A DNA stretch of 64,000 nucleotides from Minisyncoccota bacterium (GCA_041389025.1 JAWKSP010000001.1:256002-320001), one strand, 5' to 3'. Positions 1,154 through 56,981 are shown, counted from the stretch's first letter. Program-made: numbers and translations. The notes: generated from the sequence alone by a model not told the origin.

Positions 1154-1172
1154 TATGTTGAAAAATAAGTGT

Positions 1173-1210
1173 TTTTAGTCCCTGTCCTTTATAAAGGACA
1201 GGGACTAAAA
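1173..1210. terminator. perfect 38-bp palindrome (bidirectional intrinsic terminator-like) downstream of xth
   Basis: Sequence ttttagtccctgtcctttat/ataaaggacagggactaaaa flanked by T-runs. A degenerate second copy of the core (gtcttttataaaggacat) follows at about 1225-1265. Confidence 0.6.
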
Positions 1211-1877
1211 GTTTTCCCCAGTTATTCACATATATGTCCTTTACAGTCTTTTATAAAGGACATACTATATATGCAGGCCCAGAGAGGGCGAGCAGGAATC
1301 TCCAGAGTTTTGCTTCAAACAAGAGTTTGATACAAAACCCTGGAGATACCTCTTAAAGAGTACATTATAAAAACAATTGAGTATTACCTCCAAAAAACTC
1401 AAAAAATTAAACGTTCATAACAATCCCACCTAAGAGAAATCTCCTTACACCAAAGTTTATAAACTCTATAAACTAAAGAGTAAGAGACAATGATTTCTCA
1501 AACAACGTAGAGCTTTGGATAAAGGTTAGCTTCAAAAATATTTAAATAAGCGCCAACTTGGGTACAATACCCACCAAATATAAAGCTCAAAATTAATTCA
1601 AGGCCTGAGGGCATCGACAGTGAAAAGAAAATATCTTCACTTTCGATACCCCCAGGCCTTTTTTATTTTAGTAACTTATTTCTGTACTTAATAAGATGTC
1701 CCGCATCTCTAAGTACTTTAGACATTCTTTGGTTTGTTGTTTATGCCATATGTTTCAATATACAACTTAGTGTTGCAGAGGTATTGAACCATTACGGATT
1801 TATTGAAATATTGTAGAATATGTGTTATAATTTAAAGAGATATATAATTAAAATCCATTAAAATAAAGGAGATATAG

Positions 1878-2063
1878 ATGAATGATAGAATTTCAAATAT
1901 CGGTAAGAGAGTCGTATTAATATTTGACGAAGGTATAATCACAAAATGGATTTCTAATAATGATATTTATCACGTTAAAAAAGATAATGGTGAAATTGTA
2001 GCCTGGCCTGCAAATTATATCGCTGCCAGTGATTCAAACAGCTTACCTAGATTTAAAAATTAA
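1878..2063 (+). CDS. hypothetical small protein (61 aa)
   Basis: ATG preceded by an AAGGAGA ribosome-binding site at the correct spacing. No recognisable domain. Confidence 0.45.
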   Translation: MNDRISNIGKRVVLIFDEGIITKWISNNDIYHVKKDNGEIVAWPANYIAASDSNSLPRFKN

Positions 2064-2212
2064 TTATCTTAAATTTAGCTGAAAATCCTAAACCTATTTA
2101 GTATAGAGTTTAGGATTTTTTTATATTTGTAATTATTGCAATACTAAATTCTATTTTTACTCCTCCCGCATGCTTGTCATCTCTTATTTTGTAATGTGTA
2201 TACTGGTAATTA

Positions 2213-2485
2213 ATGGAAAACCTAAAATTCAAAGAAGAACCTTTGAAAAATAAAGCTAAATTAAGCGGGAGAGAAAGAGTTTCTATTGAGGAAGCGTTGG
2301 CTATACAATCGAAATTACGTGAATACATGACTCCACCCGAACTTGCTTCATATCTTAAATCTGATCCTGACTTATTGAACAGTTTAATTCTGCGATGGAT
2401 AGATAAATATGCTGCCAGATTTAAAGATTATTGTAATCTAAATGCTGATAACGATATTTTAATGCATAAAATTACTCATAAATGA
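2213..2485 (+). CDS. hypothetical protein (90 aa); possibly continues in the +1 frame to about 2605
   Basis: Clean ORF. Immediately after the stop, the +1 frame encodes NNEDFNSIREFLEQSSEDGLGGSFFTPEELQEFLEQNV with no start codon. This suggests a frameshifted C-terminal extension. Confidence 0.45.
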   Translation: MENLKFKEEPLKNKAKLSGRERVSIEEALAIQSKLREYMTPPELASYLKSDPDLLNSLILRWIDKYAARFKDYCNLNADNDILMHKITHK

Positions 2486-2656
2486 GCTAAATAATGAAGA
2501 TTTTAATTCTATAAGAGAATTTTTAGAACAATCATCAGAAGACGGGTTAGGTGGTTCTTTCTTTACTCCTGAAGAATTACAAGAATTTTTAGAACAAAAT
2601 GTTTAATAAGACTATTTGGCACCTGTGCTAATTAGGAGGTCATGTAAAACAAAGAA

Positions 2657-2724
2657 AATAACAGAGGTGCGACCTTGAAGAGGAGCGGTAAGCAACGGAA
2701 AAAGGTCGTTCCTCGGTTATTTTC
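2657..2724 (+). repeat. structured repeat element, copy 1 of 4 (hairpin AATAAC-GAGG-CGACC...GGTCG-CCTC-GGTTATTTT)
   Basis: aataacagaggtgcgaccttgaagaggagcggtaagcaacggaaaaaggtcgttcctcggttatttt. Homologous to 9018-9087, 27729-27797 and 57784-57850. Lies 3' of a + strand gene and ends in a T-run. Confidence 0.7.
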
Positions 2725-2794
2725 TATGTAAATTAATTAACATAGGTTCCATATTTCTGTCTGTACATATTATATTTTTTATGGTAAAAAATTC

Positions 2795-3292
2795 TTGGAT
2801 TATTTTTTATGGGATTATTTAATGGATAACTCAATTTTTCCTGTTTTTACATATCTACACAATGATCAGCCGCGAAAAATACAAGGGTCACGTATTGATG
2901 AAAAGTCTATAGTAATTTACAGCACTGACATAATCATAAGTCATGATATTCGTGATAAACGTGCTTTAGTAATATTTGATGGTGATATACCTTGTAATGG
3001 TTTACCTAGAAATGGGGTACAGATAGCTATGCTTGGTGAGCAAGGAATTCCTGTTAAAGGTAATCATTTTCGTTTATCAAAATCGTATGAAATGGAACAT
3101 CCTTTAGCTGAATATTTTGTTACAAATAAGTCTTATTTATTAAAAAGAAGAGTGCTTTTACTACCGGCGGGCAGGCTACAGTTATGCGCATTTATCGTTC
3201 CCAGTGGTTTGGCGGTTTGGTATTGTGTGATTGATGTTTCGTATAAAAATAACAAACCGGTTGTTTTGTTTTTAAGAAATAGCAGTTATTAA
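2795..3292 (+). CDS. hypothetical protein (165 aa)
   Basis: ORF only; no recognisable motifs. Confidence 0.35.
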   Translation: MDYFLWDYLMDNSIFPVFTYLHNDQPRKIQGSRIDEKSIVIYSTDIIISHDIRDKRALVIFDGDIPCNGLPRNGVQIAMLGEQGIPVKGNHFRLSKSYEMEHPLAEYFVTNKSYLLKRRVLLLPAGRLQLCAFIVPSGLAVWYCVIDVSYKNNKPVVLFLRNSSY

Positions 3293-3339
3293 TAACTTAG
3301 TTTAAATATTAGCCAGATATTTAATTAAATATCTGGCTA

Positions 3340-4813
3340 AACATTTATTTACTTACCTTGTGCTCTCTAGCTATCTCTTTATTGTACTCAGCTTCTTCTT
3401 CAGCTTGTTTTTCCTTGCCAGCGTCAATGAAGATTTCGCAATTCCTCTTCAGTATTATAGAGCTTAAAACCTTGGTTTCTAGGTGGTCTTTGGTATTTTT
3501 GGTCGGATCATTTTAGCACTTCCTCTAGTAGGGCATGAGTACATACCCAAGCTTTGCACGGTTTCATTAGTTATTTCCATAATCCTAGTGCCATTCTCTT
3601 CAGCATTTTGACTGAGATTGGATCACGAAGTGCTTCGTCCACCATAGCTTTATATTTGCGGAATCTAAATGGTTGTTTCTTTTGGTCTGCCGGTACCGAT
3701 ACGGTCACAAACACACGTAAGTTAAGGAGATTTTTGAATCTGATCTTCCCCGATTCGGACAATAGTGCGACGTACCGCTGATAAAGTGTAATTTGATTGG
3801 ATCAGAAAAACATGTGTAACCGTTCATTTTTTCGATAATTTGAGCTTCTTCACGTGGATATTTAAGGCGATCAAAGTTTTCTTGATCATTCTCGCCCCTA
3901 CCACTTCGTGTCCAAAGAAAGTATACATTTTGTTCTTACCTCCAGTTCGTCTAGTGGCTGGCTTACCTACATCGTGTAGTAAGGCGGCGATACGCATAGA
4001 AGTAGAATAACCTTTGTCAGCCGCAGCTTGCATGGTGCATAGGAGGTGTTCAAATACATCATAAGCATGAATACCGCCCTGCTCAACCAATTCCCTCTTC
4101 CAGCTCCAGAGATAATATATTCAAGTAGACCAAGTCATACAAGAAAATAATACCTTGCATTGAGTTGTGGAATCAATGATCCTCACAAACTCTGTGTTGA
4201 TTCTTTCCAATAGCGATTTCTTTGAGTAAAGCAGCGTTCTTAGTAACACCAGCAAGGGTCTCGCCTTCTATAGCAAATCAGCTCAGCTGCTAGTCTAACT
4301 GCTCGCATCATGCGGAGAGCATCCTCAGAAAAGCGCTTATCTGGGTCACCAACTGCTTTTAGTCTTTTTACTTTTAAGATCCTCAGAACCACTACATGTA
4401 AATCAACGTTTTTTGGTCTTTTTATGCGGTAAGCGATGGCATTGACGGTAAAGTCTCGTCTAGCCAGTCTTCTTACGAAACACCAAAAGTAACGCTGTCT
4501 GGACGTCTTTTGTCACTATACTCCCCTTCACTACGGTACGGAGTAACTTCTACTACCTGTGAACTACTTTCAGTTTCTTCGTCGTTATTTTTACTCCAAC
4601 GGTACCGTAGTCATTGTTACAAAAACTATCAGGAAAAATAAGCTTGAATTTGCTCGGATGAGCGTTGAGGTATGGTAAAGTCCCAGTCTTGGCTTTTTTA
4701 CCCAAAAGTAGGTCGCGAACACAACCGCCTACTAAATAAGTATCAAAACCAGCTTTTTCCAGCTCGTTTCCAACTCCACGTACAAATAATGGTATATCTT
4801 GAGGATTAATCAT
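3340..4813 (-). pseudogene. cca: CCA-adding enzyme / tRNA nucleotidyltransferase, fragmented by multiple frameshifts
   Basis: Minus-strand fragments sit in different frames. The N-terminal head (4553-4813) carries GGCVRDLLLG. The RRDFTVNAIAY motif is encoded around 4400-4440. Around 4230-4330 lies GDPDKRFSEDALRMMRAVRLAAEL. The HD domain (3824-4090) carries LLHDVGKP...FFGHE. Further C-terminal pieces occupy 3340-3780. No single open frame spans the gene. Confidence 0.7.
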
Positions 4814-4879
4814 GTGGCCATTGTAGCAGAAAATCGTTGCTTTTTCCTATATTTGCCGTATGATGTTAGACACACAACT

Positions 4880-4949
4880 GCACCCGTGGTGAAATGGATA
4901 TCACAACTGACTTCGGATCAGTCGTTCTGGGTTCGAGTCCACGGGTGCA
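4880..4949 (+). tRNA. tRNA-Arg(TCG)-like, atypical shortened T-arm (possible pseudo-tRNA); no CCA encoded
   Basis: Acceptor GCACCCG/CGGGTGC, D-arm GTGA-AATGGATA-TCAC, anticodon arm ACTGA-CTTCGGA-TCAGT (anticodon TCG). The T-arm TGGGTTCGAGTCCA is about 3 nt short of canonical. Total 70 nt, followed by a hairpin terminator at 4955-4990. Confidence 0.5.
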
Positions 4950-5196
4950 CAGAAAGGTTAAAGACCAGCGTTTTGGCTGGTCTTTAACTTCTGTCACACC
5001 CACCAGTCTGGGAACACAAACGATAGTGGAAGAAAAAGCCGTAGCACGACTCGAAGCCCGATTGAGATATTTTGTGAGTGAAACGAAACAAAATATCCAA
5101 TTGGGGTACTGAAACTGTAAGTTTCGAGTCCTGGCGAGAAATTCCTTTTATAACGTAACTTATATTAAGAAAAAAAATTCATGCTACCATAAACCC

Positions 5197-5874
5197 ATGA
5201 ACGAATGGCTTGATCTAAAAACTATTGCGCATTACGCAGAAAAAGCCGTTGATAGAGATTGGGCTTGGTATGAGTACGAGGTCAATTTTCCTGATCTTGT
5301 GAAACTATTGCCGGCCGATGTTGGATCAGTGTTGGATTTTGGTTGTGGAACAGGAGAATTTACTTCACTACTAACTGAAAAAGCAGACAGTGTCACAGGA
5401 ACGGATGTATCACCAATGATAGATGTGGCAAGGGTTAAACATCCAGAGATTAAGTTTGTGGTCTGGGATGGTAATGACTCTGTTCCGAGTGAGTTGGGAG
5501 TATACGATGTTATTTTTGCAAAACTTTCACTTCAGTTTATTGAAGATTTAGAATCAACTGTGAAACGTCTTTATAAAATAACCAAAACTGATGGCTATCT
5601 AATAGTTTCAGTTCCCAATCCAGATAAAATCAGTAAACAGTTTTCTTTTGAGGGAGTTGAAAACAAACGTTATCAAGACGAAATTGGCGATACAGGTATA
5701 AAAATAAATCCTATACACCGATCAGAGGCTGAATATTTTAGAGTATTTAGAAACGCAGGTTTTGATGTGTTTGAAATATCAAAACCAATGATACCTGAAA
5801 AACTTTGCCTTAAATATAACGCTAAAAATGGCGAATACTCTAGTCGTTTGAATTTGAAATTAAGGAAAGTGTAG
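5197..5874 (+). CDS. class I SAM-dependent methyltransferase
   Basis: Motif I VLDFGCGTGEFT with a downstream acidic residue and methyltransferase-fold spacing; 225 aa. Confidence 0.8.
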   Translation: MNEWLDLKTIAHYAEKAVDRDWAWYEYEVNFPDLVKLLPADVGSVLDFGCGTGEFTSLLTEKADSVTGTDVSPMIDVARVKHPEIKFVVWDGNDSVPSELGVYDVIFAKLSLQFIEDLESTVKRLYKITKTDGYLIVSVPNPDKISKQFSFEGVENKRYQDEIGDTGIKINPIHRSEAEYFRVFRNAGFDVFEISKPMIPEKLCLKYNAKNGEYSSRLNLKLRKV

Positions 5875-6093
5875 TAAATCCCCCTCAACTTTGTTGTAGA
5901 ACATATATAGATTTCTAAACTACTGTTCCCTATCTATTTCTCCTCTATGAAACTCCACTTTCTAATCCAAGCACTCACGGTAGGGGTAGGTAAAAAATAG
6001 TATTTTTAGCTAAATTTTAAGCAAAAGACCTTGAAGGTTTTTGTTTTATAAGTGAAACACAATATTAATTGTTATTTATGATAAAATTTACGT

Positions 6094-8997: not shown

Positions 8998-9017
8998 TTT
9001 GTGAGGGGTGGTTAAAA

Positions 9018-9087
9018 AATAACGGAGGTGCGACCTTAAAGAGGAGCGAGTAGCGACAGGAAAAGGTCGTTCCTCGGTTATTTTTTA
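9018..9087 (+). repeat. structured repeat element, copy 2 of 4
   Basis: aataacggaggtgcgaccttaaagaggagcgagtagcgacaggaaaaggtcgttcctcggttatttttt. Sits between convergent TrmB genes. Confidence 0.7.
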
Positions 9088-9133
9088 TGTAATACAAACT
9101 CGATTTCCGTCTTTTATAAAGAAAATAAACCAA

Positions 9134-9974: not shown

Positions 9975-10122
9975 AATTATATAATTTTAAATATACTCTT
10001 AATTTATAGCGTATGTTTAAACAAAGTTGTCGCATACATGCCACAAAAACAGTATTACGTGGTCTAATATCGCCAAGTCAGCAAAGTAGCTGATTAGATC
10101 ATTGATAAAAAAGGAGGTAAAA

Positions 10123-10539
10123 ATGCAAAATGCTGATCAAATGACGATTGCAAGAGCACTTGCTGCTGTTAGGATAAGTAAAAATATTCTAGTCTTTAAT
10201 ACAATTACTGAATCAAAAATTTCTTTCTTTGAACCAAAAGATCTACCTTCAGACGGTGAAATGGTCCTTGGTAATCTTAATAGAAAATTAATAGAGATGT
10301 ATGTCAGTATAAAACTTGAGTATAAACGTATAAAAAAAGAACTATATTCAATGTCTAAGTATGAAGAAAGAGACGGTGTAGAAATGTTGTCTCTCGAAAT
10401 AAGAGGATTGATGCTGGAAGAACTTAGATTTATAAATATGGTCAGAGATTGCTTTGAAGAAAGTTTTATTGAAGATGGAAAAAGGCCTTTCCAAATAAGA
10501 AAAGGGTGGAAAGTTGTCTTTAGCAAAGAAGATCAGTAA
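10123..10539 (+). CDS. hypothetical protein
   Basis: ATG with a GGAGG ribosome-binding site 7 nt upstream. The ORF track's TTG start at 10102 is less likely. Shares a 19-nt leader with the next gene. Confidence 0.45.
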   Translation: MQNADQMTIARALAAVRISKNILVFNTITESKISFFEPKDLPSDGEMVLGNLNRKLIEMYVSIKLEYKRIKKELYSMSKYEERDGVEMLSLEIRGLMLEELRFINMVRDCFEESFIEDGKRPFQIRKGWKVVFSKEDQ

Positions 10540-10602
10540 GCAATTAATATTGATCTGGGCAGCAAACAGATGATTAGATCATTGATAATAGGAGTATTAA
10601 AA

Positions 10603-10968
10603 ATGAAACTTAAATTTACGTTATTTCTTTTTGCGCTCGCACTCACCTTTCCTGTTATGGCTTTGGGTGAAACTAAAGAAGTGAGGTTGGGAGAAGCTGT
10701 TTTTCTGGGTGGAAATTTGATTGGCACCAACCACACAACAATAGTTGTTACAGGGTGTCATGTTGATGAGACTGTACATATTATGCGTTTCTACAGATTA
10801 AGCTCAGGTCTATTTAGTAGTCATGATCTGAGTGACCCAGTTCGTGTAGCTAAAAACGATACATTTATGTTTCTTGACTTCACTAAAGGTGAAAGAAATG
10901 TATTTGTAAAAATTTTAGACATTAAAATTGAAGAAAATGGCTGTACGGTCAAGGTGAAATTTCTCTAA
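10603..10968 (+). CDS. hypothetical secreted protein (signal peptide)
   Basis: MKLKFTLFLFALALTFPVMALGE is a classic signal peptide. The leader tgattagatcattgataa is duplicated from 10090-10108. Confidence 0.5.
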   Translation: MKLKFTLFLFALALTFPVMALGETKEVRLGEAVFLGGNLIGTNHTTIVVTGCHVDETVHIMRFYRLSSGLFSSHDLSDPVRVAKNDTFMFLDFTKGERNVFVKILDIKIEENGCTVKVKFL

Positions 10969-10984
10969 AAATAAGGAGACTAAA

Positions 10985-11926
10985 ATGTTTGATGATATTA
11001 AGAATTATATTGCTACGTTACATGAAGTGTTACTGTTGGTAAGAATATCAATCAAGGCTAAAGCTTGTAAGGATATAAAGGAAGTGATAAATGAAATAAG
11101 AATTTCTCCGCGTGGCAGTAGTATTGTTTCGGTTTGGTTTAAGCGTGCGGAGACATTATGTACACAGAAAGTGGACGGAGTATTGCCACAGATACCTTTC
11201 TCTTATACCCGTGAATTAGTTTGGATGGGTATTGAACACGGAGAACTTGGTAAAAAAGCCTTAATGCGTTTATTGGAACTTCCATTGAATTATGTGTGTG
11301 ACAAATCAATTGAAGCTTATATTTTGTACTATAGGTTAAAGAGTATAAAAAAAGACGTCTCAGATTACTTCAAGCAGATGGCTATAGATCTTGTAAGAAA
11401 AGAAGCAAGTGGTTATAAGTCATATCCAGAAATAAGGCAAGCTCTACTTAAATACCTTTCGGATTGGAGTATGGGTTACTTACGCCTTGGAAGTGCCGAG
11501 CCGCCCGCTGAGATACTTAACGTATGGTATCTTAATATAAATCAACTCTATGAACAGGATGCGCGCATACAAGCTCCGCTATGCACTTCTATTGAAGAAG
11601 CGGCTAAAAAAACACAAAGGTACTATGGCGGAGGAGTTGGCAATAAAATATGGAATGATAGGCTGATTGAGTTAGCTGACGAAGATGCTCAAAGAAATGC
11701 TCCTGAATGTCTTTCATTGGATAGTGCTCTTAAAAAGTATCAGGAATCACCTAAGAGAACAAAATCTCAACAAATCTGGCAAGATAAGGTTATTGAGTTA
11801 GTATTGCGTGAAGCTGAAATTACTAAGGATAGGCTGGTGGTGAAAGAACTTTACGATAAGGTGCCTGATGTTTTGGATGTAAAAAGAAAGCTCTTAATTC
11901 GATTTATGGAATTATATCTTTCTTAA
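10985..11926 (+). CDS. hypothetical protein (313 aa)
   Basis: Long clean ORF with a ribosome-binding site (AAGGAGA); no recognisable domain. Confidence 0.5.
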   Translation: MFDDIKNYIATLHEVLLLVRISIKAKACKDIKEVINEIRISPRGSSIVSVWFKRAETLCTQKVDGVLPQIPFSYTRELVWMGIEHGELGKKALMRLLELPLNYVCDKSIEAYILYYRLKSIKKDVSDYFKQMAIDLVRKEASGYKSYPEIRQALLKYLSDWSMGYLRLGSAEPPAEILNVWYLNINQLYEQDARIQAPLCTSIEEAAKKTQRYYGGGVGNKIWNDRLIELADEDAQRNAPECLSLDSALKKYQESPKRTKSQQIWQDKVIELVLREAEITKDRLVVKELYDKVPDVLDVKRKLLIRFMELYLS

Positions 11927-14442: not shown

Positions 14443-14467
14443 TTTGTCGGGGAGCCGGGAATCGATC
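14443..14467 (-). repeat. direct repeat of the tRNA-Pro 3' end (att-like fragment)
   Basis: tcggggagccgggaatcga duplicates 14591-14612 (the tRNA-Pro 3' acceptor plus T-arm). The two copies are 125 bp apart. The spacer carries two hairpins and a T-loop-like TTCGATCCC in inverted orientation. Confidence 0.65.
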
Positions 14468-14590
14468 CTTAGGATCAGTACAGGTTGTCGATATTTTGGT
14501 CCATGTATTCCCAAAATATCTGACTAACCTTTTCGATCCCAGCCACAAAGCAAATCAACCGAACAAAATGTTCGGTTGATTTGGCTTTTG

Positions 14591-27650: not shown

Positions 27651-27728
27651 AAATAAACCCGCATTACATATGCGAGTTTAAGCAAATTTATTACACTATA
27701 ACTAATTAAAATCAAGGAAAACAAGGGA

Positions 27729-27797
27729 AATAATGGAGGGGCGATTTTAAAAAGTAGCTACGAGCAACGAGAAATGTTCGTTCCTCGGTTATTTTTT
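27729..27797 (+). repeat. structured repeat element, copy 3 of 4 (divergent, compensatory changes)
   Basis: aataatggaggggcgattttaaaaagtagctacgagcaacgagaaatgttcgttcctcggttatttttt. Confidence 0.6.
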
Positions 27798-27838
27798 ATA
27801 TAGATTAATTAGTATAGATTCTTAGCTACCGCCGTTTC

Positions 27839-56458: not shown

Positions 56459-56939
56459 ATGACAATTACAAAAATATGTTGATAACTAACAAAATAAATG
56501 TCTAAAAACAAGGATTTTATACTAAATTGTATTAAAACTGTACAATAAGATTGACAATACACCAAAACCCTGTTATGCTATACACAGTTAAATAAAGACC
56601 ACAACGGTCAAGGAGAGAGTACCTTCAAAGGAATCATTAGAAATGACTAAGAGCCCAACCTTCGCTCCAGCCCTCGAAAGCGAGAGCAGGACGGTGACCA
56701 CAGCCGAAAGTGTGGCAGACAAAGAAGGAAAGGGAATCACTCTTACATTAAATCTAGATGATTGTTTGCACGATACTGGAGATAGGCCGCAAACCCATCT
56801 CATATATAAGGTATCACCCGTGTAACTCCAAACTTAGGTTTGGAAGGACATCGGCTGGAAACAAAACCCTAACCAAGTTTTGTTTTCAGAAATGTCCTTT
56901 TCATACAGACGAACGCAGTGAGGACAATATAAAAAGAGA

Positions 56940-56981
56940 CCCAGCACCACTTTGGTGCCTTGGCACCAAAGTGGTGCTGGG
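56940..56981. other. perfect GC-rich 18-bp-stem hairpin inside a 600-bp non-coding gap
   Basis: cccagcaccactttggtgc-cttg-gcaccaaagtggtgctggg. Confidence 0.6.

Follow-up and report, generated by a model that had tools for sequence, protein, structure and literature searches.

tRNAs require a 3′ CCA end. The closest described relatives of the gene examined here are the class II CCA-adding enzymes with a C-terminal HD domain, which carry the motifs GGxVRD, DWDF, RRDF, EDxxRMxRAxR and HD...GHE. All of these are matched by the cca gene of the window, the whole 64-kb stretch of DNA that was analysed. The order of domains is also shared, as seen in a Nomurabacteria orthologue (P0001) and, for the head and neck, in the solved enzymes 6ibp and 1miv. 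In the window and in the locus that encodes P0001 (L001), a tRNA-Arg(TCG) gene lies divergently upstream of cca. The window gene differs from these enzymes in having no single open frame and 45 indel events.

Broken genes of this kind are familiar from reductive genomes. Pseudogenes of Rickettsia, Mycobacterium leprae and insect endosymbionts show relaxed constraint, a deletion bias that includes larger deletions, and far more substitutions than indels. The window shares with them multiple frameshifts in a recognisable gene, and its organism has a small host-associated genome. It departs from them in three respects: the pN/pS of cca is 0.11, indels do not exceed 3 nt, and their frequency equals or exceeds that of excess substitutions.

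Frameshifts that fragment or pseudogenise genes are also a recognised product of long-read assembly (PMC12007338; PMC9716684). In long-read and hybrid assemblies, small indels together with some substitutions break a conserved gene while its substitutions still follow the pattern of a functional one, which is seen against an intact orthologue (PMC12007338, PMC8518188, PMC9716684). The window looks the same in this regard. Such errors are elsewhere scattered at homopolymers across the contig, whereas those of the window lie in one ~1.7-kb patch at a density like that of raw reads.

Taken at face value, the locus would belong to a bacterium with CCA-less tRNA genes but no CCA-adding enzyme, a striking claim of host dependence if true. 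Because the damage bears the statistical signature of sequence error, such a claim should not rest on this record.

The cca gene, tRNA-Arg(TCG) and their intact relatives

The remnant of cca, a class II tRNA nucleotidyltransferase with an HD domain, occupies 3345-4813 on the minus strand, as identified by motifs, alignment and domain scores. Its start ATG is at 4813 and the stop TAA of its last frame is at 3345-3347. No single frame reads the gene. This interval contains short ORFs only, and the fragments examined are 50-88 aa long. An 86 aa fragment (4553-4813, minus strand) runs from the N-terminus into the beginning of the head domain, with GGCVRDLLLG, and scores 27.3 bits against PolyA_pol. 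DWDF is present in the cca fragments as well as GGCVRDLLLG. A 50 aa fragment (4240-4392, minus strand), identified by ORF calling and translation, contains the AVGDPDKRFSEDALRMMRAVRLAAEL motif, and RRDFTVNAIAY and EDALRMMRAVRLAAEL are found in this ORF and its neighbour. The HD domain (LLHDVGKP, FFGHE) lies in an 88 aa fragment (3824-4090, minus strand) with a score of 35.8 bits. Finally, a 63 aa fragment (3571-3762, minus strand) was assigned to the C-terminal tail domain (QPFRFRKYKAMVDEALRDPISVKMLK) by alignment to P0001. The longest cca ORF is 88 aa, compared with an expected uninterrupted frame of ~490 codons.

A rough conceptual join of the fragments matched the solved CCA-adding enzymes 6ibp (E=5e-39) and 1miv (E=5e-33), along with thousands of Patescibacteria proteins that have the domain set PF01743 + PF12627 + PF01966. 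The top match was P0001 (MCB9811191.1 / USN87432.1), a 491 aa protein from Candidatus Nomurabacteria. The gene was also projected onto this orthologue with the indels taken out. In this projection the protein has 90% identity to P0001, with scores of 100.6 bits for the head domain PF01743 (PolyA_pol), 41.8 bits for the neck/RNA-binding domain PF12627 (PolyA_pol_RNAbd) and 38.9 bits for the HD domain PF01966. The earlier note had identified the gene as a CCA-adding enzyme, and this holds, with all of the named motifs on the minus strand and all three domains scored in the projection. From the names of the homologues and the CCA-less tRNAs of the window, we infer that the specificity would be CCA-adding rather than poly(A)/A-adding. 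The note was also right that no product is possible from cca as written, given 45 indel events and no single readable frame. It placed the motifs in at least four frames; they are indeed in different frames, but the strand has three, with ~42 switches among them.

The closest intact orthologue of cca is P0001 in L001, a locus of a Nomurabacteria MAG that is syntenic with the window. L001 carries the same methyltransferase gene, TrmB-like genes and Exo_endo_phos gene around cca, and the flanking DNA is 88–92% identical between the two. The six flanking genes common to both (4641 nt) have equal lengths and align with 0 gap columns. Their pN/pS is 0.02–0.20, and pS is 0.28–0.37 in most neighbours. 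The methyltransferase adjoining the damaged patch shares 100% identity with MEZ4103915.1, an NCBI protein of a Candidatus Paceibacterota MAG. Using tblastn with P0001, cca was found intact, as a single HSP with no stops, in 82/82 other loci, and only the window copy is fragmented. A scan of genome_contigs produced 80 intact cca loci, which are more distant (≤82% amino acid identity to P0001). In metagenome_contigs, exact-pattern scans with one pattern from within cca and another from the conserved spacer detected no near-identical strain with an intact cca. The window is low in GC (~0.36) and its ORFs are dense and mostly long. Within its 64 kb, neither a second cca nor another shattered gene was found, and coding density outside the damaged locus is normal.

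The tRNA-Arg(TCG) gene (4880-4949, plus strand; 4879-4950 by ARAGORN) is divergent from cca, 70 nt long and without an encoded CCA. It was recognised by Rfam with an RF00005 score of 47.1 bits, above the gathering threshold of 29. This is the lowest score among the four tRNAs of the window, and the orthologues score 52–64 bits. The lesion lies in the 3′ strand of the T-stem (4939-4941, plus strand), which reads CCA where L001 and 52 other loci have 5 nt (CCTGG, CCCTC...), and amounts to a 2-nt deletion plus one mismatch. The T-arm reads CTGGG TTCGAGT CCA and does not provide a 5-bp T-stem on a 7-nt T-loop. A 5-bp T-stem is present in 53/53 relatives, in which tRNA-Arg(TCG) also lies beside cca. 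The T-arm defect described in the earlier note is therefore real, but the arm is 2 nt short rather than about 3 nt (70 versus 72 nt in the 53 relatives). A partial copy of the tRNA-Arg 3′ end at 5124-5138 still reads TTCGAGTCCTGGCG. MFE folding returned a cloverleaf from neither the window tRNA-Arg nor the intact L001 tRNA. The terminator hairpin of tRNA-Arg (4956-4988, plus strand) retains a perfect 13-bp core. Comparison with L001, L003 and L004, where the outer stem is perfect over 17–21 bp, revealed that the outer stem in the window is broken by independent indels in both arms.

CCA is encoded in tRNA-Gly(GCC), and it is not encoded in tRNA-Pro(TGG), tRNA-Gly(TCC) or tRNA-Arg(TCG). The first two of these CCA-less genes had already been taken as a sign that the enzyme is needed. 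Both do lack CCA and tRNA-Arg(TCG) can be added to them. With 3/4 tRNAs of the window lacking an encoded CCA, the organism needs a CCA-adding activity. Given these CCA-less tRNAs and an intact cca in 82/82 relatives, loss of the gene should be strongly deleterious.

Indels and substitutions in cca

Positions 2600-5900 of the window were globally aligned with L001, in which the cca coding region is 10001-11476 (1476 nt). The comparison generated 45 indel events in cca (28 deletions, 17 insertions), of which 42 shift the frame. Thirty-four are 1 nt, 8 are 2 nt and 3 are 3 nt in length, and none is larger than 3 nt. The density of events is ~1.9% for deletions and 1.2% for insertions. The six flanking genes have 0 indels in 4641 nt, compared with the 45 in 1476 nt of cca (Fisher p ~1e-28).

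All four bases occur among the inserted and deleted bases, with no common sequence context. Natural slippage would cluster in homopolymer runs, and natural decay usually brings larger deletions. Bases outside any homopolymer account for 43% of those deleted and 58% of those inserted, compared with a background of 52%. Runs of at least 4 contain 23% of the deleted bases versus 10% of the background. The distribution of the indels along the gene is compatible with uniformity (KS p=0.16). Small indels that disrupt the frame are absent from two stretches. One comprises 238 nt at 4700-4937 (p ~3e-4 under a uniform rate), where the window and L001 differ in length only by a 21-nt gap in the spacer between cca and the tRNA. 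The other comprises 200 nt at 3886-4085, inside the ORF at 3824-4090.

The substitutions were examined separately. There are 202 mismatches between cca and L001, and they fall on codon positions 1, 2 and 3 in the ratio 35/23/144. With the indels removed, pS is 0.46, pN is 0.050 and pN/pS is 0.108. Under relaxed selection the codon-position profile would flatten and dN/dS would approach 1; cca has kept its third-position bias. This bias, and a pN/pS of 0.108 that is within the range of the intact neighbours, indicate that purifying selection acted on cca for practically the whole of its divergence from L001.

Changes were polarised with eight outgroup cca genes, using 788 sites that are nearly invariant among the outgroups. 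Here 33 changes are derived in the window and 9 in L001 (binomial p=3e-4), although 13/33 window changes lie no more than 3 nt from an indel and could reflect alignment noise. The excess of substitutions in the window gene is ~1.5–3% (~12–24 at the 788 sites), compared with ~3% indel events, which gives at least one indel event per excess substitution. Among the window-derived substitutions GC>AT changes predominate by 19 to 10 and transitions by 23 to 10. Bacterial mutation-accumulation and pseudogene data put indels several-fold to ten-fold below substitutions. With indels at a tenth to a fifth of the substitution frequency, no more than ~9 would be expected, and the probability of 45 or more is ~1e-17. 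A natural indel spectrum, with fewer indels than substitutions, a focus on repeats and some larger deletions, was not found in cca. The codon-position profile, the outgroup-polarised ratio of indels to substitutions and the homopolymer context, each taken against a close intact orthologue, provide a test of artefact versus decay that does not require reads.

Sources of the damage

The indel-rich patch, as delimited by alignment to L001 and by its clean bounds, extends over ~1.7 kb at about 3355-5016, with approximate limits. It is bounded by a perfect 30-nt palindromic terminator (3310-3339) on one side and by 49 nt identical to L001 (5018-5066) on the other. We infer, with a probability of roughly 0.8, that this patch is unpolished low-quality consensus in a long-contig MAG, which would be the technical cause of the damage. 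If corruption after assembly is counted in, an artefact becomes slightly more probable still. Under the preferred reading cca and tRNA-Arg(TCG) would be an ordinary housekeeping pair, functional until recently and found side by side across this Patescibacteria clade. The deposited ~1.7 kb would hold random errors at ~5–6% per base, made up of ~3% small indels and ~2–3% substitutions. The stretch would derive from a single long read or a few that were left uncorrected, or polishing would have missed the patch in some other way. The frameshifts and the short T-arm would then be properties of the record and not of the organism.

Several observations favour unpolished consensus. The spectrum of changes is error-like, is confined to one block with accurate flanks and ignores gene boundaries, with an uneven density inside the block. 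Since cca, the T-stem of the tRNA and the outer stem of the terminator are all damaged, the damage is not confined to a gene that might be under relaxed selection. Outside the patch the record is accurate, as a 942-nt gene (10985-11926) is 100% identical to that of the independently assembled L001. Deletions at ~1.9%, insertions at 1.2% and substitutions at 1.5–3% resemble raw or very low-coverage long reads and not a polished consensus. The length of the contig, 622,966 bp from an uncultured community, suggests long-read data. The nearest relatives include the HK-STAS-PATE genomes, which were generated by Nanopore plus Illumina hybrid assembly, and contigs from error-prone long reads were hard to polish fully in complex metagenomes according to the authors (PMC8518188). 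Some features count against an artefact. Nanopore errors are usually more homopolymer-centred than the 23% versus 10% in runs of at least 4 observed here. The density is uneven, with indel-poor stretches at 4700-4937 and 3886-4085. The lean toward GC>AT changes and transitions would equally be seen with natural mutation in an AT-rich genome. There is also no obvious reason why only 1.7 kb escaped correction.

The earlier note had left a choice between a decaying locus and a patch of poor sequence. Poor sequence is favoured by the pN/pS of 0.108, the indel ratio of at least 1 and the clean flanks, and decay is the less likely of the two. A genuine and very recent pseudogene, in which cca was inactivated, tRNA-Arg(TCG) was damaged and small indels accrued unusually fast, is unlikely, as is its corollary that CCA addition would then be performed by a second gene elsewhere in the genome or by the host. 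The 33 versus 9 changes at conserved sites on the window branch, with their GC>AT and transition bias, are in keeping with such decay, and the two damaged genes are adjacent members of one pathway. The neighbourhood has been rearranged by a 2.2-kb window-specific insert (1154-3340) directly downstream of cca, and Patescibacteria are episymbionts with reduced genomes. However, a pN/pS of 0.108 indicates constraint over nearly all of the divergence, and a ratio of indels to excess substitutions of at least 1, with none >3 nt and a weak homopolymer preference, is unlike known bacterial decay. The gene is intact in 82/82 relatives, three CCA-less tRNAs are present in the window alone, and its 64 kb contain no second cca, no other shattered gene and a normal coding density. 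It is more doubtful still that the sequence is correct and that the lineage has just lost the window's only cca together with tRNA-Arg(TCG), despite its CCA-less tRNA genes. In that case CCA activity or mature tRNAs must come from the host, or an unrecognised enzyme must exist, and an unusual mutational process must have made dense, random indels of 1–3 nt.

Damage introduced after assembly could take the form of in-silico corruption, a mis-merged consensus of two strains, or a raw read pasted in by scaffolding or gap-filling. We give it a small chance as a separate cause; in practice it would be a sub-case of the preferred reading and likewise not biology. The near-uniform positions, the geometric-looking sizes (34/8/3) and the nearly homopolymer-blind indels would suit it, and the gene that is 100% identical to the L001 lineage is consistent with related strains in a common habitat. 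Against it, nothing else in the window looks synthetic. A consensus mixed from two strains was rejected: it should lower the divergence from L001, and pS in the patch is 0.46 versus 0.28–0.37 in most neighbours. Expression of cca as a cryptogene, through programmed recoding or insertion/deletion RNA editing, can be given almost no weight. In its favour, the amino acid motifs between the frameshifts are well preserved. The changes nonetheless do not resemble U-indel or C-insertion editing, nor slippery-site frameshifting; they also reach the tRNA and the non-coding terminator, and no such recoding or editing system is known in bacteria. Programmed frameshifting and RNA editing were rejected on the basis of ~42 frame changes that involve all four nucleotides in runs of 1–3 with no common context. 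Unpolished consensus remains the preferred reading, and the result serves as a quality flag on the record by pointing to a stretch of a public MAG in need of re-polishing.

A tRNA-linked RNA element and other features of the window

A family of RNA elements linked to tRNA genes is probably a more interesting lead from the window than the damage to cca. A conserved element of ~100 nt (5045-5145, plus strand) lies immediately downstream of tRNA-Arg and its terminator. A search of 5018-5145 against Rfam yielded no family at gathering or E-value thresholds, and no relevant description of a tRNA-linked RNA motif in Patescibacteria was found in a search of the literature. Thirteen copies were collected by hand. 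Their consensus fold has 26 pairs, and 19 of these show compensatory double changes. When the window and 81 other loci were searched with a covariance model built from the 13 copies, 41 matches were obtained. They include a second window copy (14444-14542, minus strand), 48 nt downstream of tRNA-Pro, L001 9636-9736, L003 5690-5789, L006 5702-5803 and ~35 more. In the alignment of the 41 sequences, which was fitted to the covariance model and so leans towards structure, 95.4% of cells pair and 25/26 pairs covary, compared with ≤52% paired when the partners are slid. Judged by its covariation, the element appears to be an undescribed, strongly covarying structured RNA family linked to tRNA genes.

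The architecture is a three-helix junction with an invariant 5′ GAC..GAA, a GUAC junction, a hairpin with a UGUAAG loop, and a 3′ CGAGUCC or its equivalent. About 28/41 matches lie 41–134 nt downstream of a tRNA on the same strand, after the terminator of that tRNA. The tRNAs upstream of the element are Arg-TCG, Arg-CCG, Pro-TGG, Gly-GCC and Leu-CAG. At least 20/41 matches end in a 15–24-nt exact copy of the 3′ end of their own tRNA, from the T-loop to the discriminator, and the 5′ strand of the closing helix within the element is the complement of this copy. The element may be a small RNA that resembles a tRNA minihelix, a relic left by integration into the 3′ ends of tRNAs, or a mobile element of miniature size.

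Two tandem elements of the same architecture are found at L001 1230-1600 (minus strand), with tRNA-Gly(GCC) on their upstream side and a DUF3800 gene directly after them. The T-arm sequence of tRNA-Gly makes up their closing helices, and an inner hairpin (28 nt) is identical to window 5068-5095. Between the tRNA-linked element and the methyltransferase gene, L001 (9030-9640) has ~560 nt more than the window (~5150-5196), and this extra stretch contains a called 68 aa ORF.

On the other side of cca, the window-specific segment at 1154-3340 places ~2.2 kb between the Exo_endo_phos gene and the cca terminator, where the corresponding interval in L001 is only ~0.7 kb. Its ORFs of 61, 90 and 165 aa have no Pfam match. 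An intergenic repeat of ~75–120 nt is dispersed over the window at 2655-2731, 9016-9092, 27702-27821 and 57783-57850 and is also present at L001 5134-5210. The copies are 75–88% identical to each other.

The 942-nt ORF at 10985-11926 encodes 313 aa and does not differ at any nucleotide from L001 2503-3444 (100% identity). The L001 copy has no Pfam domain on record. Such identity amid neighbours with a pS of 0.28–0.37 suggests recent recombination or transfer between both lineages. In a gap of ~0.7 kb at 56486-57209, no convincing ORF and no Rfam match at the gathering threshold were found. Beside this gap lies a pair of genes of 85 and 70 aa (57210-57707, minus strand), which looks like a candidate toxin-antitoxin module.
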